From an uncultured Erysipelotrichaceae bacterium (GTDB lineage: Bacteria; Bacillota_I; Bacilli_A; Erysipelotrichales; Erysipelotrichaceae), in NCBI GenBank assembly GCA_964457525.1, contig CAYWGS010000056.1:1-9616 (forward strand): a DNA stretch of 9,616 nt, read 5' to 3'. Shown piece after piece: positions 1,399 through 9,616 of this stretch. The first letter of the stretch is position 1. Each line of letters begins with the position of its first letter. The position numbers were made by a program, and so were the translations under genes. Below the pieces are notes generated by a model. The model was not told the DNA's origin. It saw nothing but the letters and a program-made list of their open reading frames with translations, and ran no database searches.

Positions 1399-3645
1399 AT
1401 GATTAGAACAGTGATTAAACGGGATGGAAGAAAAGTAGGGTATGATCGTCAACGGATTGTTTCAGCGATTATAAAAGCTGAAAGACAACTAGAGGGAAGC
1501 GTATCCATTGCGGAGAAGGTAGCCAAAGAGGTGGAGTTGAAGTTAAATCAATATAAGCAAGACGCTGTTTCGATAGAAGAGATTCAAGATCTTGTATTGA
1601 TTTGTTTAAAAGAGAATCATGCCATTGAGTGTGCATCTGTGTATGAGAAGTATCGTAAAGAGCGTACTCAACAGAGAGAAGTGCGTGGTGCTTTGATGAA
1701 GTCACTTGAGAAAATGACGTTCTCAGAATCGAGTGATGAGAAGAAAGAGAATGCCAATATAGATGGGAATACATCCATGGGGATGATGTTGCAATATGGT
1801 TCAACGGTATCAAAGAATTTTACGAAACATTTCCTATTAAAGGAAGAACACAGTGATTTACATGATGCAGGTTGGATCCATATTCATGATTTAGATTTCT
1901 ATGCGATGGGGACATTGACGTGTTGTCAGATCGATTTAACACAGTTATTCGAGAATGGATTCTCTACAGGTCATGGTTCACTAAGGGAGCCTAATGATAT
2001 TAGTTCTTATACAGCACTTGCGGCAATCGCAATTCAATCCAATCAGAATGATCAACACGGTGGACAGAGTATTCCTGCTTTTGATGTGGATATGGCAGAA
2101 GGTGTACGTAAGACATTTAGGAAATTATTGGCGTATGAGATCGATATTTTATTAGAAGATCATCCGGATATTTCTTATGATCATATAAAGGATTTGAGTA
2201 TTGAATCGGTGGATTTAACTAATATCGATCCATCAGATAGGATTGGACGCTTATTAAATCGTGTCTATAAACAAACCATTAAGAAAACATATCAAGCGAT
2301 GGAAGCGCTAATTCATAATTTGAATACCATGCATTCAAGAGCGGGTGCACAAGTTCCATTTTCAAGTTTGAACTTTGGTACAGATACATCGGTTGCGGGA
2401 AGAGTTGTGACGGAACAACTTCTTTTAGCGCATGAATCTGGGTTGGGAAATCATGAGACTCCAATCTTTCCTATTTTAATTTTTAAGGTTAAAGAAGGTA
2501 TTAATTTTAATCCTACCGATCCAAACTATGATTTGTTCAGACTCGCATTGCGTGTTAGTGCCAAACGACTATTCCCTAATTTTAGTTTCTTAGATGTGCC
2601 GTTTAATGCGAAGTATTACAAACAAGGACACGTTGAAACTGAAGTCACCTATATGGGCTGTAGGACACGTGTGATAGGCAATCAATGTGGTGAGAGTCAA
2701 GTATCGGGTAGAGGGAATTTATCGTTTACAAGTATCAATCTTGTGCGTTTAGGGATTGAATATGGTCTTCTTTTTAATCAAGAAGCGGATTGGAAGGGTT
2801 TCTATAAAGCATTAGATGGATTGTTAAATCAAGTTTTGGATCAACTTTTAACTCGTTTAGCGTATCAAGCGAATAAGAAGGTTAAGAATTTTCCGTTCTT
2901 GATGGGTCAGGGTATTTGGCAGGGCTCTAATCAACTATCGTACAATGACTCCGTAGAGTCTGTTCTTAATCAAGGGACTTTGAGTATTGGTTTTATTGGT
3001 TTAGCAGAATGTTTAAAGGCAATGACGGGTTCTCATCATGGAGAGAGTAAAACATCTCAACAGATTGGATTAACATTAATCAATTATATGAATCTCTTTT
3101 GTGAGAAAGAATCTAAACAAAGGAATCTAAATATTACGTTACTTGCGACACCTGCAGAAGGTTTATCGGGTCGTTTTACCCGTTTAGATCGTGAAAAATA
3201 TGGGGTTATTGAAGGGGTCACGGATCGAGAGTATTATACGAATTCATTCCATGTACCTGTGTATTATACCTGTTCGATGGATCATAAATTGATGGTCGAA
3301 GGGCCTTATCATGCCATTACACCAGCGGGTCATATTAGTTATGTTGAGATGGATGGGGATCCAAGTCGTAACATCGATGCGATGGAGGATATTGTACGTT
3401 TGATGCGTAAAGCGAATATTGGTTATGGTTCAATCAATCATCCTTTAGATTATGATCCAGTGTGTGGATATCGTGGTGTGATTAAGGGTTCTGTTTGTCC
3501 TAAATGTCATAGAGATGAGCATGAAGGGCAGTCTTTTCAACGTATTCGTAGAATAACAGGTTATTTGGTGGGGACGTTAGAACGGTTCAATCAGGCTAAA
3601 TTATCGGAGGTTCATGAGCGTGTCCAACATGATTCGATTAGCTAG
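1399..3645 (+). CDS. nrdD: Anaerobic ribonucleoside-triphosphate reductase, class III (NrdD)
   Basis: 748 aa. It has an N-terminal ATP-cone (MIRTVIKRDGRKVGYDRQRIVSAI), a catalytic-region motif YMGCRTRV, a C-terminal Zn site (CGY...CPKCH) and the glycyl-radical motif RRITGYLVG. SD AGAAAGGG lies 5 nt upstream of the ATG. An nrdG partner follows. Confidence 0.95.
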   Translation: MIRTVIKRDGRKVGYDRQRIVSAIIKAERQLEGSVSIAEKVAKEVELKLNQYKQDAVSIEEIQDLVLICLKENHAIECASVYEKYRKERTQQREVRGALMKSLEKMTFSESSDEKKENANIDGNTSMGMMLQYGSTVSKNFTKHFLLKEEHSDLHDAGWIHIHDLDFYAMGTLTCCQIDLTQLFENGFSTGHGSLREPNDISSYTALAAIAIQSNQNDQHGGQSIPAFDVDMAEGVRKTFRKLLAYEIDILLEDHPDISYDHIKDLSIESVDLTNIDPSDRIGRLLNRVYKQTIKKTYQAMEALIHNLNTMHSRAGAQVPFSSLNFGTDTSVAGRVVTEQLLLAHESGLGNHETPIFPILIFKVKEGINFNPTDPNYDLFRLALRVSAKRLFPNFSFLDVPFNAKYYKQGHVETEVTYMGCRTRVIGNQCGESQVSGRGNLSFTSINLVRLGIEYGLLFNQEADWKGFYKALDGLLNQVLDQLLTRLAYQANKKVKNFPFLMGQGIWQGSNQLSYNDSVESVLNQGTLSIGFIGLAECLKAMTGSHHGESKTSQQIGLTLINYMNLFCEKESKQRNLNITLLATPAEGLSGRFTRLDREKYGVIEGVTDREYYTNSFHVPVYYTCSMDHKLMVEGPYHAITPAGHISYVEMDGDPSRNIDAMEDIVRLMRKANIGYGSINHPLDYDPVCGYRGVIKGSVCPKCHRDEHEGQSFQRIRRITGYLVGTLERFNQAKLSEVHERVQHDSIS

Positions 3646-4129
3646 ACTCAGTTCATATAGTTCAGTGGATGGACCTGGATTAAGAACTGTGGTTTGGTTT
3701 CAAGGTTGTCCTCATCATTGTGTGGGGTGTCATAATCCAATGACCCAAAGTTTGGATCAAGGTTATTGTGTTTCTGTGGATGATTTGATGGTTCAGATTG
3801 AATCTCTAAACAATAAGAAAATCACCCTTTCTGGGGGTGATCCATTCTTACAGCCTTTAGCATTACTTGATTTGGTTGAACGATTAAAAGGGTTAGATTA
3901 TGATATTTGGTGTTATACCGGATATACGTTTGAGGATTGTTTAAATCATCCAATACTTACAGCGTGTTTAAGACATATGGATATGTTGGTTGATGGTAAG
4001 TTTGAACAATCTATGATGGATCATTCTCTTATGTTTAGGGGTTCAAAGAATCAAAGGATTATTGATTTGAAGTACTATTTTGATACATTAATGGTTAATA
4101 AACAAGATGAATGGACATATATTGAATAA
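3614..4129 (+). CDS. nrdG: Anaerobic ribonucleotide reductase activating protein (radical SAM, NrdG)
   Basis: It carries SVDGPGLRTVVWFQGCPHHCVGCHNP, which contains the CxxxCxxC radical-SAM cluster motif typical of NrdG. It overlaps the nrdD 3' end. The start is ambiguous: ATG 3614, in-frame GTG 3620 (best spacing to GGAGG at 3606-3610) or ATG 3629. Confidence 0.9.
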   Translation: MSVSNMIRLARLSSYSSVDGPGLRTVVWFQGCPHHCVGCHNPMTQSLDQGYCVSVDDLMVQIESLNNKKITLSGGDPFLQPLALLDLVERLKGLDYDIWCYTGYTFEDCLNHPILTACLRHMDMLVDGKFEQSMMDHSLMFRGSKNQRIIDLKYYFDTLMVNKQDEWTYIE

Positions 4130-4149
4130 AAAGGCATTAAGCCTTTTTT
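4128..4149. terminator. Bidirectional rho-independent terminator (T-left) serving nrdG (+) and the ATPase gene (-)
   Basis: AAAAAGGC (4128-4135), loop ATTAA, GCCTTTTTT (4141-4149). The A-run and T-run flank the stem, so it can act on both strands. It is 19/21 identical to the hairpin at 5657-5677. Confidence 0.75.
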
Positions 4150-4182
4150 ACAAGAATATGTTCTTGTATATTGCGTTCTTGT
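4150..4182. repeat. 33-bp direct repeat, left copy (R-left): imperfect 18-bp palindrome plus a third half-site
   Basis: ACAAGAATATGTTCTTGTATATTGCGTTCTTGT is 30/33 identical, in the same orientation, to 5619-5651. It ends 3 nt beyond the ATPase stop codon. Confidence 0.85.
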
Positions 4183-4185
4183 TTG

Positions 4186-5565
4186 TTATGGGAGGAAGGA
4201 TATTAGTTGTATGTTTTTTTCAGCTTTAGCAAGATTAATCACAGCATCCGTAAATCCAATCTTACTAAAGAAGATATAATAGGATTCTTTAGGATTAAGA
4301 ACCATACTTTTTTGGATTAACCCATTGACGATTTGCATATCGAGTGGTTCTTTTGTCCACTTAACTTCCGCAAAAACGGTTATTGAATTGCTTATACCGA
4401 TTAAATCTATTTCTTCTTCACGTTTTAATTTAGGATTGTTTCCCCACCATCGTCCTCGTTTAGTAATAAGAGTGGGTAGTTTACCTTCTTGGTTCAATTT
4501 GTCAAAATGGTCTAGGAATATTTTTTCAAATCCTTCTCCCATAAAGGAAGAGATATTATTCTCAATGAATTCTTGATATACTTTGTCGCCTAATCCTAGT
4601 TCGATTGCGCTCATATTTGGGAACACAAATTGATACCAAAATCTAAATGAACCATCTGAAATTCGATAAATCGATTTTCGAGTGTTATCTTCATTAATAG
4701 GATTTTCTTTTATGAGGATTCCTAATTCAATTAGGTTGTCTAAGTATCGATTTAGAGCCCCAGTTTGCATGTTAATTTTAGTCGCAATCGTATTGTTTTT
4801 TGATGATCCATTCGCAATTGCGTTTAGAATCATATTATAGACTTTTGGTTCACGTAATTCTTGTTTTAGGAAGTTTAGTGGTTCTTCATAGAGTCTTCCA
4901 GTATCTGTTAAGAAAAGTGAGACGATATTCGATTTTAAACTTTTATTTTTGTTTATATACGTAAGATATTCGGCAATTCCACCAGTCGCATAGTGGAGAA
5001 TGGCAATATCTTCCTTTTGCATTGGGCTTAGATATTTTTCAGTCTCAAAGTATGTAAAAGGTTTTAGTTTGATTTGTGATGTTCGGCGGCCATACAGTGG
5101 ACTTTTTATACCTAAAACTTGAGTTTCCATAAAACTCATAGAAGATCCACAAAGAACTAAATGTAATTTTGTATCTTTCCATTCATGGTCACAGAATTTT
5201 TGAATGATGGATGATATTTCTGGCATCGATTGTGCTAGATAAGGATATTCATCGATAATAAAAATTATTCTTTCATTTCTTGATAATTCGGTTAAGTAAT
5301 GAAACATTTGATTGAAATCACTAAAAGAGGGAAGATAAGAAGATTGTTTGGTATGTTCATAGATTGACTTGGATAATAAATCAAGGTTTGTTGAATAGCC
5401 TGCTTCGATTGCCATGTAGTAGATTGCGTTTTTGTCTTGAATAAATTGTTTAAGTAATTGAGTTTTACCAATACGTCTTTTTCCATACAAAACTGTAAAT
5501 TCAAATTGATTTGATTGATATTGTCTTGTTAGATTTTCGAGTTCTTTTTCTCTTCCTATGAACAT
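4186..5565 (-). CDS. ATP-binding protein of the archaeal-ATPase (PF01637-like) family with a central winged-helix and a C-terminal DUF234 (PD-(D/E)xK-like) domain
   Basis: 459 aa. It has the N-terminal FIGREKELENL signature, Walker A GKRRIGKT (res 28-35) and Walker B IIFIIDE (res 100-106). The wHTH-like segment YNMILNAIANG...GALNRYLDNLIELGILIKE (about res 243-287) is followed by FRFWYQFV. The C-terminus has E347 ... EIDLIG (D387) ... FAEVKW (E400, K402), consistent with a restriction-endonuclease fold. SD AGGAGA lies 7 nt upstream of the ATG. Confidence 0.85.
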   Translation of the reverse strand: MFIGREKELENLTRQYQSNQFEFTVLYGKRRIGKTQLLKQFIQDKNAIYYMAIEAGYSTNLDLLSKSIYEHTKQSSYLPSFSDFNQMFHYLTELSRNERIIFIIDEYPYLAQSMPEISSIIQKFCDHEWKDTKLHLVLCGSSMSFMETQVLGIKSPLYGRRTSQIKLKPFTYFETEKYLSPMQKEDIAILHYATGGIAEYLTYINKNKSLKSNIVSLFLTDTGRLYEEPLNFLKQELREPKVYNMILNAIANGSSKNNTIATKINMQTGALNRYLDNLIELGILIKENPINEDNTRKSIYRISDGSFRFWYQFVFPNMSAIELGLGDKVYQEFIENNISSFMGEGFEKIFLDHFDKLNQEGKLPTLITKRGRWWGNNPKLKREEEIDLIGISNSITVFAEVKWTKEPLDMQIVNGLIQKSMVLNPKESYYIFFSKIGFTDAVINLAKAEKNIQLISFLP

Positions 5566-5587
5566 ATTTATGTCTCCTATTTTCTAT

Positions 5588-5622
5588 ATTTTAAAAATAA
5601 CACATTAATCATTAATATACAA
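5588..5622 (-). promoter_or_regulatory. Putative promoter of the ATPase gene, with -35 overlapping the R-right palindrome
   Basis: The minus strand reads TTGTAT (plus 5617-5622), a 17-nt spacer, then TGtTATTTT (-10 at plus 5594-5599, TG at 5601-5602). An alternative -10, TAAAAT, lies at plus 5588-5593. The spacer contains ATTAATCATTAAT. Confidence 0.4.
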
Positions 5623-5651
5623 GAACATGTTCTTGTATATCGTGTTCTTGT
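5619..5651. repeat. 33-bp direct repeat, right copy (R-right): perfect 18-bp palindrome plus a third half-site
   Basis: The repeat is ACAAGAACATGTTCTTGTATATCGTGTTCTTGT. Positions 5619-5636 form a perfect palindrome. Half-sites are ACAAGAA (5619-5625), TTCTTGT (5630-5636) and TTCTTGT (5645-5651). It is 30/33 identical to 4150-4182. Confidence 0.85.
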
Positions 5652-5656
5652 AAATT

Positions 5657-5677
5657 AAAAAGGCGCTAAGCCTTTTT
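5657..5677 (-). terminator. Rho-independent terminator (T-right) of the DUF805-rmuC-DUF898 operon
   Basis: AAAAAGGC (5657-5664), loop GCTAA, GCCTTTTT (5670-5677). It lies 4 nt downstream of the DUF898-like stop codon on the minus strand. It is 19/21 identical to 4128-4148. Confidence 0.75.
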
Positions 5678-5681
5678 GTGT

Positions 5682-5984
5682 TTATGCAAAGTGTGTATGT
5701 TTTGTTTTCCATTTCTGTAGGTCAATTCCGACCCAGAAACTATAGATTCCAAAGGTAATAATAATCAGTAACAACCATTTGATCCATGTACCAAACAAGC
5801 CCATGGCAGTTCCTTCAAAGCGAAGTCGTTTTCCATCGATAATGGTGTGACTGGTCATCCATTTCTGATATAAGACAATGGCCCAAGGATAACAGATACC
5901 AAAGGTTAGAACGGTGATTAGAAACCTAAGGATTTGGATACCAATCAGGCCTAATAAACCTCCATCAAACTTCGAATTATTCAT
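5682..5984 (-). CDS. Small membrane protein, DUF898 (YjgN)-like
   Basis: 100 aa with about three hydrophobic helices. The pattern TFGICYPWA ... RLRFEGT ... TFGIYSFW resembles the repeated TLGIYxPW / F-x-G motifs of the DUF898 family. Its ATG overlaps the rmuC stop (ATGAATAA, 5977-5984). Family assignment is by eye only. Confidence 0.65.
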   Translation of the reverse strand: MNNSKFDGGLLGLIGIQILRFLITVLTFGICYPWAIVLYQKWMTSHTIIDGKRLRFEGTAMGLFGTWIKWLLLIIITFGIYSFWVGIDLQKWKTKHTHFA

Positions 5985-7263
5985 CGTTCGTGTCCTCTTC
6001 TAGTAATATTTCTGGTTTAACTTCAAGGGTTGATACATTCTTGAGTTTGGATTGAATCATACGGGTACGAACACCAACAAGTTTATCCAATTCTTCACTG
6101 GTCTTTGTTAGTTTATCTTGTGCACTTTGTAGTACATTACCAAATTTCTCGAACTCTGCTTTAACCGATGATAAGGTACTCCATACTTCTCCACTTCGTT
6201 TTTGAATCGCAAGTGTCTTAAAGCCCATTTGTAGGCTGTTTAAGAGGGCTGCCATCGTAGTAGGTCCTGCAATGTTAATTTGGTAATCACGTTGTAGGAC
6301 TTCAACTAAACCGCGTTGTACGACTTCTGCGTATAAACCTTCGGTTGGTAAGAATAGGATAGCGAATTCTGTGGTATATGGGATACGTACATATTTTTCT
6401 TTGATGTCTTTTGCGAATGTTTTAATCTTCGTTTCGAGTGATTTCCAGGATTGATCAATGAGTGCTTTATCCCCAATCTCACTCGCATTCATCAGTCTTA
6501 CATAATCTTCAGTCGGAAATTTGGAGTCTATTGGAAGATAGACGGGTCCACTTTCATCACCGGGTAATTTGACCGCAAATTCAACTGGGTTCTTAGTGCC
6601 TGGAATGGTCACATAGTTTTCAACGTATTGTTCTGGGGAGAGGATTTGTTCAAGGATGGATCCGAGTTGAATTTCACCTAACATACCACGTGTTTTAACA
6701 TTGGATAGAATCTTCGTTAAATCCCCAACTTCTACCCCAATCTTACGCATTTCACCTAATCCTTTATATACTGCTTCAAGTTGTTCAGAAACTTGTTTGA
6801 AGGATTGTGAGATACGATCTTCTAAGGTCTTTTGTAGTTTCTCATCTACGGTCATACGCATTTCATCTAACTTCTTACTGTTTTCTTCTTGAAGTGAGGA
6901 TAATCGTTTTTCTACCGTCTCACGAATCTGGTTTAACTTCTGTTCATTGGATAAACCGGTATTCGTCAATGTCGTATTCATTTGACTGAGTGTTGTATAG
7001 ACGGTGTTTTGCAAAGCTTCTTGGTTGAGCTTAAGGAGTGTGGTTAAGTCGGATAAGCGTTTATCTAAGACTTGATTAGTTTCCTTGTTGGTATTGCTTA
7101 ATACCGTACTAAAGGTTGTGAGGGATCGTTGATTGTCATCTTTGAGATCATTCTCCATGTCTCTTAAATCACTCTTAAGCGCATCGTTATTTGGTTTCTT
7201 GAGTAATAAAACAATGAGTAATACAATAATTATTCCAATGCCTATAAGTATGTAAATTTCCAT
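5977..7263 (-). CDS. rmuC: DNA recombination protein RmuC (N-terminal TM anchor, long coiled coil, C-terminal RmuC nuclease-fold domain)
   Basis: RmuC-family motifs are present: VEFAVKLPGDESGPVYLPIDSKFPTEDY and FAILFLPTEGLYAEV. The N-terminus is hydrophobic (MEIYILIGIGIIIVLLIVLLL). The track ORF starts at 7293. The ATG at 7263 is preferred because it is preceded by SD AAGGGGG and avoids overlap with the upstream gene. Confidence 0.9.
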   Translation of the reverse strand: MEIYILIGIGIIIVLLIVLLLKKPNNDALKSDLRDMENDLKDDNQRSLTTFSTVLSNTNKETNQVLDKRLSDLTTLLKLNQEALQNTVYTTLSQMNTTLTNTGLSNEQKLNQIRETVEKRLSSLQEENSKKLDEMRMTVDEKLQKTLEDRISQSFKQVSEQLEAVYKGLGEMRKIGVEVGDLTKILSNVKTRGMLGEIQLGSILEQILSPEQYVENYVTIPGTKNPVEFAVKLPGDESGPVYLPIDSKFPTEDYVRLMNASEIGDKALIDQSWKSLETKIKTFAKDIKEKYVRIPYTTEFAILFLPTEGLYAEVVQRGLVEVLQRDYQINIAGPTTMAALLNSLQMGFKTLAIQKRSGEVWSTLSSVKAEFEKFGNVLQSAQDKLTKTSEELDKLVGVRTRMIQSKLKNVSTLEVKPEILLEEDTNDE

Positions 7264-7273
7264 AATACCCCCT

Positions 7274-7768
7274 TTATGATTGATATGGACCATATCGATT
7301 ATCGTATGGTGTTCCTGGTAGTGCGAGTAAGATAATAACAGCTATGTTTCCAATCCATGGAATAAAGTTAAAGAGCAAGAAGTATCCGGATCGATCTTGA
7401 TCATGAAGTCTTCTGACTGACATGGCTAGGATTGGGATAAGCATGAAGGTTGAATAGATAAAACTGCTAAAGATCAGTACGCATACGAGTAAGTAAGACA
7501 AGACACTTTCGATTAATACAGTTAGGAGTGATAATCCAATAAATAATCCAACAAACACGATAATTGAATTCGCTAACATGAACATCCAGAAGTCTCTTCT
7601 GGAACAACGTCCATTGAAATTAGCGTATTGTTTGAGTGCATTAATATAGTATTGAAATAAGCGAGTACTCGCATTCGACTTTGTTATTTCAAGTGGTTTT
7701 CCACAGTGCTCGCAGTTTAATTCCTTTGAGGTGGTTTCGAGTCCACAGTACGTACAGATTCTTGCCAT
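7274..7768 (-). CDS. DUF805-family membrane protein with N-terminal zinc ribbon
   Basis: The zinc ribbon is CTYCG...CEHCG. DUF805 hallmarks are [35 protein letters not shown] and [10 protein letters not shown], with several TM helices. The track start is GTG 7780. ATG 7768 is preferred because GGAGG (7774-7778) lies 5 nt upstream. Confidence 0.8.
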
Positions 7769-7791
7769 AAGATCCTCCACATTTAGTATAT

Positions 7792-7820
7792 ACTATAGGG
7801 TAAAAACATGTCATAATCAA
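7792..7820 (-). promoter_or_regulatory. Putative sigma-A promoter of the DUF805-rmuC-DUF898 operon
   Basis: The minus strand reads TTGATT (plus 7815-7820), a 17-nt spacer, then TATAGT (plus 7792-7797). It lies about 15 nt upstream of the SD. Confidence 0.5.
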
Positions 7821-7847
7821 AGACATTTTTATTTTGGGTGGTATAAT
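7820..7847 (+). promoter_or_regulatory. Putative sigma-A promoter of udp
   Basis: -35-like AAGACA (7820-7825), a 16-nt spacer, then an extended -10 TGgTATAAT (7839-7847). It is back to back with the minus-strand promoter. Confidence 0.5.
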
Positions 7848-7883
7848 ACTTGTACAGAACTTTTAAAGGCTAGGAGGATTAAT

Positions 7884-8654
7884 ATGGCTACAGTTTATTC
7901 AGAAAAAGAATATCATGTTCAATTAGAAAAAGGTGATGTAGGGGAATACGTCATTCTTCCAGGAGACCCAGGTCGTTGTGAGAAGATTGCTCAGTATTTT
8001 GATGAACCTGCTCATGTTATGACCAATCGTGAATATGTTACTTATACAGGTAAATTAAATGGTGTTAAAGTCAGTGTTACTTCAACCGGTATTGGAGGTC
8101 CATCTGCAGCGATTGCGTTAGAAGAACTCATTCATTGTGGCGCTCATACCTTCATTCGTGTTGGTACATCCGGTGGTATGCAACCAGAAGTATTAGGTGG
8201 GGATGTTGTGATTGCGACAGGCGCAATTCGTTTGGATGGTACAAGTAAAGAGTATGCTCCAGTTGAATTCCCAGCGGTTGCGAACTTTGATGTTGTTCAA
8301 GCATTAAGAGAAAGTGCTAAGGACTTAAATATTCCGAGTCATACGGGTGTTGTTCAATGTAAGGATAACTTCTATGGTCAACATTCTCCTGAATCGATGC
8401 CAATTGCTTCTGAGTTAAATGCTAAGTGGGAAGCTTGGATTCGTGCTGGTGCATTAACATCCGAAATGGAGTCTGCTACATTATTTGTTGTTGGTTCGAC
8501 TCGTCGTGTACGTGTTGGAGCTGTTCTATTGGTTGTGGCTAATCAAACACGTCGTGCATTAGGTTTAGAAGATATTCAAGTTCATGATACAGAGGCCGCA
8601 ATACGTGTTGCGGTTGAAGCGATTAGAAAGTTAATCGAACAAGATAAGAAGTAA
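7884..8654 (+). CDS. udp: Uridine phosphorylase (nucleoside phosphorylase family NP-I)
   Basis: 256 aa counted from the ATG at 7884, with SD AGGAGG at 7872-7877. It shows extended similarity to E. coli Udp blocks: [58 protein letters not shown] and SEMESATLF. The longer track ORF from 7731 is an upstream read-through artefact. Confidence 0.85.
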
Positions 8655-8655
8655 T

Positions 8656-8685
8656 AACCTTAACTCATATTAAGGTTTTTTATTT
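8656..8685 (+). terminator. Rho-independent terminator of udp
   Basis: Stem AACCTTAA (8656-8663) / TTAAGGTT (8670-8677) with a 6-nt loop, followed by TTTTTATTTT. Confidence 0.8.
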
Positions 8686-8713
8686 TGGGCTTTGTTGTTT
8701 ATAAAGGAGAATT

Positions 8714-9370
8714 ATGAAGCGATTATATATATTTGATATGGATGGATTACTTCTTGATACTGAGACACTCTATCAACAATTCTGGTTTAAAGTATTACAA
8801 GAGAAGAATATTGATATTACGCGAGAAGAACTTAGAAAGATTATTGGTATGAGTTATGATCAAGCTAAGAATTATTTCTTGAATTATGTTGATACGGAAG
8901 AAGAATTTATTGAACTTAGACAAAGACGAGAAGTCTACTTCTGGGAACATGTAGAAAACATAGGTATGCCGCTTAGAGAAGGGGCAGATCAAATACTGAG
9001 TTACTTGATAGAAAATAAAATCAAGACAGCACTTATCACTTCTACTGAGGAACAACGTGCTAAGAAACTAATGAATATTGCAGGGCTCAATCATACCTTT
9101 GATTACATGGTCTTTAGTAATATGGTAACTAAGACAAAACCTGATCCTGAAATGTATCATTATTTAGAGAAACTTACGGATATTGATATGAGTGAATGGA
9201 TTGTATTTGAAGACTCTTACAGTGGATTAAAGGCTGCGAACAATGCAGGGGTTGATGTGGTGTGGATCAAAGATTTAGCCATTCTCATGGATGATAATGT
9301 GAGTTATAAGCAGATGCATAGTTCATTACTCGATGTCTTAGCAAACATGGAGATGATTGAAAACATGTAA
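8714..9370 (+). CDS. HAD-superfamily hydrolase, subfamily IA (phosphatase / beta-phosphoglucomutase-like)
   Basis: HAD motif I is FDMDGLLLDTE, motif II LITSTE, motif III K..KPDPE, and motif IV FEDSYSGLKAANNAG. SD AAAGGAG lies upstream of the ATG. Substrate cannot be inferred. Confidence 0.85.
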   Translation: MKRLYIFDMDGLLLDTETLYQQFWFKVLQEKNIDITREELRKIIGMSYDQAKNYFLNYVDTEEEFIELRQRREVYFWEHVENIGMPLREGADQILSYLIENKIKTALITSTEEQRAKKLMNIAGLNHTFDYMVFSNMVTKTKPDPEMYHYLEKLTDIDMSEWIVFEDSYSGLKAANNAGVDVVWIKDLAILMDDNVSYKQMHSSLLDVLANMEMIENM

Positions 9371-9380
9371 TTATACAAAA

Positions 9381-9416
9381 ACAGACCTATCTCAGGAATG
9401 ATGGGTCTGTTTTTGT
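9381..9416 (+). terminator. Rho-independent terminator of the HAD gene
   Basis: Stem ACAGACC (9381-9387) / GGTCTGT (9404-9410), extendable by two further pairs, followed by TTTTTGTTT. Confidence 0.75.
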
Positions 9417-9616
9417 TTGGGGAAGTAAAATTGAGGGGATACTTCCTATTTATATATCGTATATTTATGGAGAAACTTAAGGAATGTTGATATAAAGTCA
9501 ATATTGCATAGATAGTGAGTAAATAAGAGAATGCAAGAAAAGTGGACATTTTATTAAATAGAGTCGTTCTCTATCGAAATAGCATACAATGTTCAGAACC
9601 ATAATATTAAGTAATG

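Follow-up and report, generated by a model that had tools for sequence, protein, structure and literature searches.

A solitary ATPase_2/DUF234 gene of the PDC-S27 family in an Erysipelotrichaceae genome: a candidate defence nuclease with a gene-linked palindrome over its inferred promoter

Introduction

A stretch of 9,616 nucleotides (nt), positions 1 to 9,616 of contig CAYWGS010000056.1 of an uncultured Erysipelotrichaceae bacterium (GenBank assembly GCA_964457525.1), is called the window here and carries on its minus strand a solitary gene (4186-5565) for a 459-residue protein made up of an ATPase_2 domain, a winged helix and a DUF234 domain of predicted nuclease fold. The gene belongs to the candidate defence family PDC-S27 of PADLOC. 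A palindrome preceded by a direct half-site, together named R, overlies its inferred promoter. Palindromes of this kind are family-wide and lineage-specific, and they co-vary with the putative recognition helix of the winged helix. This co-varying palindrome over the promoter is what is new here and its added value is modest. Few candidate defence genes are as abundant as PDC-S27, and the protein itself is therefore not a discovery. The reading to which we give about an even chance is that of a self-contained, probably autoregulated and horizontally acquired conflict or defence nuclease, whose function we infer from the features described below.

The PDCs are 145 untested candidates from a "guilt-by-embedding" screen, which started from genes lying inside BREX, DISARM and type I restriction-modification (RM) loci (bioRxiv 10.1101/2024.01.29.577857). 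PDC-S27 has been described as an ATPase with a fused PD-(D/E)xK domain, and 3503 archaeal and 4562 bacterial hits were counted for it (PMC12988326). It is found in 71% of Halobacteria genomes (PMC12988326; bioRxiv 10.1101/2025.11.08.687337). DUF234 was placed in the PD-(D/E)xK superfamily in 2012 (PMC3424549). In the literature, no paper was found that defines a function for the PDC-S27 or ATPase_2-DUF234 family.

A palindrome linked to the gene

R is a direct repeat of 33-34 nt, whose two copies (4149-4182 and 5618-5651, 91% identical) bracket the gene, as a preliminary description of the window, made from the DNA letters, had noted. Its 18-nt core occurs twice in the window, for 0.03 occurrences expected. 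In the upstream copy (R-up), the palindrome is longer and stays perfect over 26 nt (5615-5640). The TTGTAT proposed as the -35 box overlaps its right arm, which puts the centre of the dyad near -40 relative to the likely start of transcription (Table 1).

The preliminary description had also given the gene its own promoter. A simple consensus scan flagged no site upstream of the ATPase gene; however, the geometry TTG-17 nt-TAnnnT is position-conserved in seven aligned homologue upstream regions, as a -35 TTGTAT, a 17-nt spacer and a -10 of the form TGn-TATTTT, from which we infer such a promoter. Only three elements are conserved in this alignment: an 18-nt block, TACAAGAACATGTTCTTG, invariant over the -35 box in the seven homologues (61-100% identity), the upstream half-site, and a hexamer TAnnnT at a distance of 17-18 nt from the TTG. 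Since the TTG ends the palindrome and TAnnnT follows at this distance, the right arm of the palindrome corresponds to the -35 region.

The palindrome CAAGAACATGTTCTTG lies over the -35 box in homologues at 61-83% protein identity as well, four of which stand in unrelated neighbourhoods. Those at 61-63% identity are found in wholly different contexts (NAGLU/CBM genes; dnaE-pfk-pyk; GNAT/TPR/nadABC; a metagenome-assembled genome of Oscillospiraceae) and all have [A/G]CAAGAnC followed, after 7 nt, by ACAAGAACATGTTCTTG[T/C], the whole starting at -54 to -84 from the start codon. At one of the loci (L141, 274-350; 61% identity), the half-site ACAAGA(A/T)C is present five times, spaced strictly every 15 nt, and the inverted half-site follows, so that the array resembles iterons.

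In more distant homologues (36-49% identity), the interval from -50 to -110 contains long palindromes of other sequences, each specific to a lineage, for example AATTAGTCAAGTA...TACTTGACTAATT, TACTAATCATACAATTACTAATT..., TTATAGCTAGCTATATTATAGG... in Collinsella, and TCATATCATGTTATGTCATAACATGATATGA. Palindromes were scored as the best value within -130..-20, using as controls the genes of the same loci with an upstream spacer of at least 130 nt. A score of at least 8 is reached by 61% of the ATPase genes (n=57, median 8) and by 10% of the control genes (n=307, median 5; Mann-Whitney p=4e-15).

The palindrome class tracks the putative recognition helix of the winged helix, located in the region of residues 268-280. 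In all carriers of CAAGAAC, this helix reads xGxLN(R/K)Y. In contrast, the protein of locus L005, which at 67% identity is nearer overall than the 61% carriers, has a helix that reads TGSISKY, and its gene has a different dyad, TTAACAACCTTA-N15-TAAGGTTGCTAA, present on both sides of the gene. The bracketing layout recurs at this locus with a changed repeat sequence, a 42-nt direct repeat (9921-9962 and 11492-11533) that contains the dyad and flanks the gene; the genome context is another one, with HipA and Abi_2 genes nearby.

The same motif occurs in hosts annotated as Erysipelotrichaceae and as Oscillospiraceae, and loci annotated as Lachnospiraceae carry differing motifs (L024 versus L019 and L028). 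Hence, the motif follows the gene and not the host. In the 9-21 kb examined per locus, the operator is located only beside the gene itself. R overlaps the promoter and is co-inherited with the gene across unrelated contexts, which is the pattern of an autoregulated module. The gene-linked operator points, at the least, to regulation by a DNA-binding activity, and the likeliest bearer of this activity is the protein itself. The simplest reading of these sequence comparisons suggests that the protein binds the palindrome with its own winged helix and so would regulate its own gene. A search of the published literature, which yielded few papers, returned no description of the gene-linked operator or of flanking repeats.

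R and the other palindromes could instead be bound by regulators of the host, for instance a repressor of the stress or SOS type, the winged helix then serving for target recognition only. Host stress regulators often control defence and mobile genes, and the GAAC..GTTC of R resembles half of a Gram-positive LexA box. However, its spacer is 2 nt and not 4 nt, the hosts sharing one motif are annotated as different classes, the Lachnospiraceae loci differ from one another, and the motif changes together with the recognition helix. We regard this explanation as improbable.

Several other identities were considered for R. Inspection of the sequence led to the rejection of a LexA/Cheo box because of the same 2-nt spacer, and gave no resemblance to a dif/Xer site or to an NrdR box. 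R as a phage or att sequence was rejected, since 2.9 million viral contigs contain 0 matches. A scan of JGI metagenomes returned 43 matches, 42 of them unrelated chance matches and one the locus of this lineage itself; as this is the sole genuine match, a dispersed genomic repeat or the site of a global regulator was rejected too.

The promoter palindrome would predict the DNA sequence that each homologue recognises, and it offers a direct and cheap entry into the family via binding and reporter assays. If the binding is true, specificity would be readable from genomes for thousands of homologues. It also suggests that tightly self-limited expression, or a sequence-specific target, is a possible reason for failed heterologous tests.

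Domain architecture and predicted fold of the protein

The protein, whose N-terminus reads MFIGREKEL, matches Pfam ATPase_2 (PF01637) over residues 2-203 (87.3 bits, cut-off 33.2) and DUF234 (PF03008) over residues 310-405 (79.8 bits, cut-off 22.5, E=2.2e-22). Both are over the gathering thresholds, and their N-to-C order is that of the COG1672 architecture. Between them, HTH_45 and HTH_24 of Pfam match residues 242-287 below their cut-offs, and weak matches to winged-helix regulators of the Sso10a and Sta1 types are also found. An AlphaFold2 model of the full-length protein, built with 55 homologues (pLDDT 93.8, pTM 0.90), consists of an alpha/beta ATPase core, a helical lid, a winged helix (helices 240-251, 257-263 and 268-280; strands 284-287 and 299-302) and a C-terminal alpha/beta domain. 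The three-part architecture of the preliminary description is thereby recovered, the winged helix resting on sub-cut-off hidden Markov models (HMMs) and on the model. The open reading frame (ORF) also agrees exactly, on the minus strand, as do the positions of all the motifs it quoted (FIGREKEL, GKRRIGKT, IIFIIDE, E347, EIDLIG and AEVK).

In fold searches with the full-length model, 2qen and 2fna come first, followed by Orc1/Cdc6 and ORC subunits, then by the NB-ARC domains of plant NLRs; matches to the AAA+ fold include 1w5t, 2qby and 1fnn. The AAA+ part dominated this search, and residues 303-459 were therefore folded alone. The resulting model (pLDDT 90.7) contains, in its own numbering, helix 41-57, strands 67-75, 80-89 and 94-100, helix 108-121 and strand 126-132, that is, a restriction-endonuclease-like alpha-beta-beta-beta-alpha-beta core. 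Foldseek matches of this model in the PDB are almost only PD-(D/E)xK nucleases, the best being 1y88 with E=8.5e-4 in a series of modest E-values. They comprise AF1548, MspJI, NucS/EndoMS, VC1899, Cdn1, McrC, Can2, Hjc, Cas4 and the Avs4 nuclease. At the sequence level, the profile of the domain aligns its EID...ExK with AF1548 (1y88) and with a YraN-family protein.

Conservation was followed in the 55 homologues (47-83% identity) and in 75 representatives of distant clusters (31-51% identity). Among the putative catalytic residues, D387 (in EIDLIG), E400 and K402 (both in AEVK) are invariant in the first set and present in 73, 65 and 66 of the 75 distant representatives, respectively; E347 is kept in at least 90% of the first set and in 70 of the second. 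In the ATPase domain, K34 of Walker A and D105 of Walker B are invariant in the homologues and found in 74 and 75 of the 75 representatives. G33, T35, E106, E385 and I386 are invariant in the 55 homologues too, and G28 is conserved. Thus, the nuclease site looks intact in sequence and in the model, in line with the nuclease proposed by the preliminary description. By its predicted architecture, the protein would be an ATP-dependent, DNA-binding PD-(D/E)xK nuclease. The viral libraries PHROGs and BFVD gave only generic AAA+ matches.

Likeness to known systems

With PDC-S27, the protein shares domain order and its nature as a single gene of about 460 residues, and no difference in architecture was seen. 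The PADLOC model PDLC04984 matches residues 2-410 on positions 4-419 of a 474-position profile (E=6.5e-62), a second model, PDLC04985, matches with E=4.3e-28, and the solitary gene corresponds to the single-gene definition of PDC-S27. The PDC-S27 candidates derive from BREX, DISARM and RM loci, whereas the present copy sits among housekeeping genes. Other PADLOC matches at E<=1 are to PDC-S01, to CARF3-type winged-helix models and to mad8 (E=0.016, with no stretch passing alone); there was no match to the models of Gabija GajA, OLD/PARIS, Septu, Lamassu or McrBC.

The best structural matches to the ATPase and winged helix are PABY2304 of Pyrococcus abyssi (2qen, E=1.7e-13) and SSO1545 of Sulfolobus solfataricus (2fna, E=5.9e-12), with target-normalised TM-scores of 0.66-0.68. 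Both have the SPLYGR motif in common with the query, and their function is likewise unassigned. They are only 350-357 residues long and their sequence match ends at query residue 212 at most; hence nothing in them corresponds to the DUF234 nuclease domain.

In Orc1/Cdc6 and the STAND/NB-ARC proteins (Avs, plant NLRs), as here, a winged helix comes after the AAA+ core. Orc1/Cdc6 binds dyad-containing DNA boxes beside its own gene. In the present protein a nuclease lies at the C-terminus, and there is no evidence of an Orc1/Cdc6-like origin function. Avs and NLR proteins have a C-terminal repeat sensor (TPR, LRR, WD), whereas none is seen here in Pfam or in the model; the protein is therefore not of the Avs or NLR type. 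Consistently, PADLOC gave no Avs match, and NB-ARC proteins match the ATPase-winged-helix part only.

A parallel case of a single gene with an ATPase, a winged helix and a PD-(D/E)xK domain is AAA_14 with DUF4143 (COG1373, PDC-S01). It shows weak cross-matches (E=6e-12), belongs to another Pfam family and ATPase subfamily, and is also unvalidated. As to regulation, in RM systems with controller (C) proteins and in autoregulated toxin-antitoxin operons, a promoter palindrome accompanies and buffers a potentially toxic nuclease gene. There the regulator is a separate small helix-turn-helix protein, whereas here the DNA-binding domain is inside the putative nuclease itself.

Gene and transcription unit

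Read along the gene strand, the order is the DUF898 stop codon, a hairpin, R-up, the promoter, the ribosome-binding site, the gene, the downstream copy of R (R-down) and a hairpin shared with the convergent nrdG. The two hairpins both fold as A-tract/U-tract terminators and are 91% identical, giving an overall layout terminator-R-gene-R-terminator. The 71-nt region that holds the first hairpin of Table 1 and that of R-down has a folding energy of -16 kcal/mol (z=-5.8); at R and at the hairpins, Rfam gave no RNA family. As read from these predicted structures, the hairpin after DUF898 insulates the ATPase gene from the rmuC-DUF898 operon, and the gene is monocistronic and terminator-insulated on both sides, which bears out the preliminary description on this point. 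The layout may have originated by duplication of one ancestral bidirectional terminator when the gene was inserted.

Table 1. Positions of the gene, its parts and its flanking elements in the window
Feature	Position	Strand	Basis or remark
Gene, 459-residue ATPase_2/winged-helix/DUF234 protein, PADLOC PDC-S27 family	4186..5565	-	ORF list, Pfam, PADLOC, AlphaFold
AAA+ ATPase domain, residues 2-203	4957..5562	-	PF01637, E=1.7e-24
Walker A GKRRIGKT, residues 28-35	5461-5484	-	
Walker B IIFIIDE, residues 100-106	5248-5268	-	
Winged helix-turn-helix, residues ~240-302	4660..4848	-	Sub-cut-off HMMs and model
Putative recognition helix ALNRYLDNLIELG, residues 268-280	within 4660..4848	-	Model
DUF234 domain, PD-(D/E)xK fold, residues 305-459	4189..4653	-	PF03008, Foldseek
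Putative catalytic residue E347	4525-4527	-	
Putative catalytic residue D387	4405-4407	-	
Putative catalytic residue E400	4366-4368	-	
Putative catalytic residue K402	4360-4362	-	
Upstream R element (R-up), read as operator	5615..5651	-	Repeats and homologue conservation
Direct half-site of R-up, ACAAGAAC	5644-5651	-	Followed by a 7-nt spacer
Palindrome of R-up, ACAAGAACATGTTCTTGT	5619-5636	-	
Inferred promoter	5594..5622	-	-35 TTGTAT (5617-5622), 17-nt spacer, extended -10 TGT-TATTTT (5594-5602)
Ribosome-binding site AGGAG	5574..5578	-	Sequence; 8 nt before ATG
Downstream R copy (R-down), ACAAGAACGCAATATACAAGAACATATTCTTGTA	4149..4182	-	Direct repeat of R-up; 3 nt past stop codon
Bidirectional terminator hairpin AAAAAGGCUUAAUGCCUUUUU, common to nrdG (+) and the ATPase gene (-)	4127..4148	.	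Folds on both strands
Terminator hairpin after DUF898	5656..5677	-	Terminator scan flags + strand; also folds on - strand

The locus and its variable slot

The neighbours identified with Pfam are nrdD and nrdG on the left and DUF898, rmuC, DUF805, uridine phosphorylase and HAD hydrolase genes on the right, a housekeeping neighbourhood as the preliminary description had said. Proteins nearly identical to its RmuC and Udp bear names that point to an uncultured Erysipelotrichaceae bacterium. The G+C content of the ATPase gene is 0.31-0.33, versus 0.37-0.40 in its flanks.

The window protein is itself not on record, and its 99% relative P0001 stood in for it. The slot between DUF898/rmuC and nrdG holds the ATPase gene in the locus of the 99% relative (L001), in all 8 contigs reaching past DUF898 among the 10 listed with identical RmuC (same species), and in L002 and L003, where the ATPase has 83% identity. 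In L004 (77% identity), the slot contains the ATPase gene together with hydEFG, aspartase and a GGDEF gene. In L146, where RmuC has 78% identity, it contains a flavodoxin gene and three aldo-keto reductase genes (6082-9455), but neither the ATPase gene nor R. Thus, cargo varies in the slot at the DUF898|nrdG junction, and R did not pre-exist in it, since the slot without the gene has none. No empty site with R only was found among the 10 listed contigs with identical RmuC or in a related species. The ATPase gene appears as accessory at the genus or family level, yet kept at the slot through large divergence, the locus being stable across three species-level lineages.

In L004, remnants of the gene are also present. 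A third R, with the promoter and the first 65 nt of the ATPase gene, adjoins DUF898 (4029-4173), and the last ~100 nt of the gene with an R lie directly upstream of the intact copy (9799-9957); the hydEFG-aspartase cluster is located between the two fragments. As each fragment is beside an R, a former R-gene-R-gene-R tandem array, later disrupted, can be deduced.

These observations raise the question of a selfish or mobile cassette, in which the flanking R copies would be recognition, recombination or cleavage sites and the ATPase-nuclease, instead of protecting the host, would cause itself to be duplicated, excised or homed. The window, L001, L002 and L004 all have R as a direct repeat on both sides of the gene, another 42-nt repeat flanks L005, the remnants in L004 imply a past array, the slot has different cargo in related species and the neighbourhood of the gene changes by lineage. 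However, four carriers of the CAAGAAC operator (L139, L141, L143 and L006) have no downstream copy. Flanking direct repeats as a family-wide trait were rejected, because they are significant at 13 of 70 loci and not at the other 57; several of the 13 are Collinsella intergenic repeats or duplications of neighbouring genes. Moreover, each side keeps an intact recognition site, which differs from classical homing, no recombinase or transposase accompanies the gene, the locus is stable in three species-level lineages with the gene in all 8 contigs mentioned above, and ordinary unequal crossing-over between repeats can yield a tandem duplication. A cassette of this kind is, in our opinion, unlikely.

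Besides these loci, that of Enterocloster citroniae (L007) has ORFs of equal lengths, 1131 and 1707 nt, on either side of the ATPase gene (6788-9741 and 11462-14411), which suggests a duplicated segment around it.

Family distribution and neighbourhoods

A word-indexed search gave 7931 matches at E<=1e-5. Clustering at 50% identity gave 8364 clusters at E<=1e-3, 1460 of which have E<=1e-30. In a scan of GTDB species, the best homologue has 61% identity. Homologues are present in 157 plasmid records, mostly haloarchaeal megaplasmids and Rhizobium, and phages are almost without them (8 of 50,697 records). The distribution is patchy, and the neighbourhood differs in each lineage.

Neighbourhoods were surveyed for 38 species-level homologues by taking the two nearest ORFs per side (146 proteins), with families counted among the matches listed. 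The Pfam matches of these neighbours cover 165 families, for the most part of housekeeping character (MurJ, urease, enolase, ABC transporters), and no conserved partner or co-travelling gene was found. Defence-related neighbours among the matches listed are type I methyltransferase (2), GmrSD_C (2), type I restriction endonuclease (1), DpdF (1), PsyrT (1), AriA-like (2), PbeA (2) and PDC-S50 (1). Four neighbours are ATPase_2 paralogues. In this survey, of the kind that the preliminary description had put forward as a check, defence genes are only a minority of the neighbours.

Function and proposed mechanism

In our reading, the gene is a horizontal acquisition of its Erysipelotrichaceae lineage, with an accessory character, in keeping with its lower G+C content, the neighbourhood changing by lineage and the homologues on plasmids. 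Its most likely role, from indirect evidence, is in conflict with or defence against invading DNA, because the distribution is patchy, neighbourhoods differ, plasmids carry homologues and the family was recovered from BREX, DISARM and type I RM loci. In this conflict or defence reading, the protein would bind R through its own winged helix, as a dimer or oligomer, and so set the expression of the gene. As the dyad centre is at about -40, this could occur by repression through occlusion of the -35 box or by class-II-type activation. In the present lineage, the second R past the stop codon may permit looping or bridging with R-up, which would keep a potentially toxic nuclease low and buffered. 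The AAA+ domain, which resembles those of Orc1/Cdc6 and STAND proteins, would control oligomerisation on DNA by binding or hydrolysing ATP, and oligomerisation would in turn license the nuclease to cut target DNA.

Several points weigh against this proposal. No experiment supports defence: in the one test found, a cold-seep PDC-S27 was placed in E. coli B, and the four candidates giving protection against T7, T5 or T4 did not include it (bioRxiv 10.1101/2024.09.26.614923). The gene is here among housekeeping genes and not in a defence island, matches to defence models are a minority of the 146 neighbours, and the same locus is kept down to 77% protein identity, which is unusually stable for a defence gene. 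Autoregulation is deduced from linkage and co-variation, and both also follow phylogeny. Repression and activation are indistinguishable here, and the four carriers named above do not have R-down. Thus, the one-gene defence module of the preliminary description holds as a candidate, since the gene matches PDC-S27, in which form the idea was already published, while the one homologue assayed did not protect. The accompanying caveat, that a regulatory or selfish role was equally possible, was fair.

The protein could also be dedicated to transcription or chromatin, or be a housekeeping protein of repair or recombination. It would then bind specific palindromes, its nuclease-like domain being used for DNA binding or repair and not for conflict. 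A conserved operator does imply sequence-specific DNA binding, the place beside rmuC and nrdDG is stable in this lineage, there are the weak Sso10a and Sta1-type matches, and the family is very abundant, as its frequency in Halobacteria illustrates. However, with the operator only beside its own gene in the 9-21 kb examined per locus, no regulon is visible. The conserved catalytic tetrad argues for catalysis, a related species that has the same locus (L146) does not have the gene, the distribution is patchy and includes plasmids, and there is no conserved partner gene. We consider that such a factor has little chance of being the right answer.

A more speculative view goes beyond the conflict or defence reading. 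PDC-S27 proteins might be sequence-specific ATPase-nucleases, each lineage reading its own long palindrome through its winged helix, kept at its own promoter and sometimes at both gene ends, with the flanking sites acting, beyond an autoregulatory operator, as loading or "self" sites for an AAA+ oligomer. If this were true, which we rather doubt, the flanking sites could serve to loop out the protein's own gene, to discriminate self from foreign DNA, or to duplicate and spread the cassette, and the system would be restriction-like or homing-like without a modification partner.

Other features of the window and of related loci

A gene of the AAA_14 + DUF4143 (PDC-S01) architecture lies ~5 kb beyond nrdD in all syntenic contigs, outside the window (L086, 9282-10547; L002, 16257-17522; L146, 14349-14787). 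Two solitary ATPase-nuclease candidates are thus found within ~7 kb.

On the plus strand of the window, a full-length cobalamin riboswitch (RF00174, 1156-1328, 100.4 bits) is directly upstream of nrdD (1399-3645); hence, the anaerobic ribonucleotide reductase operon is probably repressed by B12. On the minus strand, positions 350-1032 encode two small predicted membrane proteins of 79 and 143 residues, the latter with a C-terminal CxxC...CxxC zinc ribbon. Neither matches a family above threshold, and ORFs of similar size occur at the same position in relatives. Finally, the DUF898 protein (5682-5984, minus strand) has only 100 residues for a Pfam profile of 336 positions, and 8 nt of its ORF are shared with rmuC. 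An unrelated 94-residue ORF on the opposite strand stands in its place in L002 and L003.

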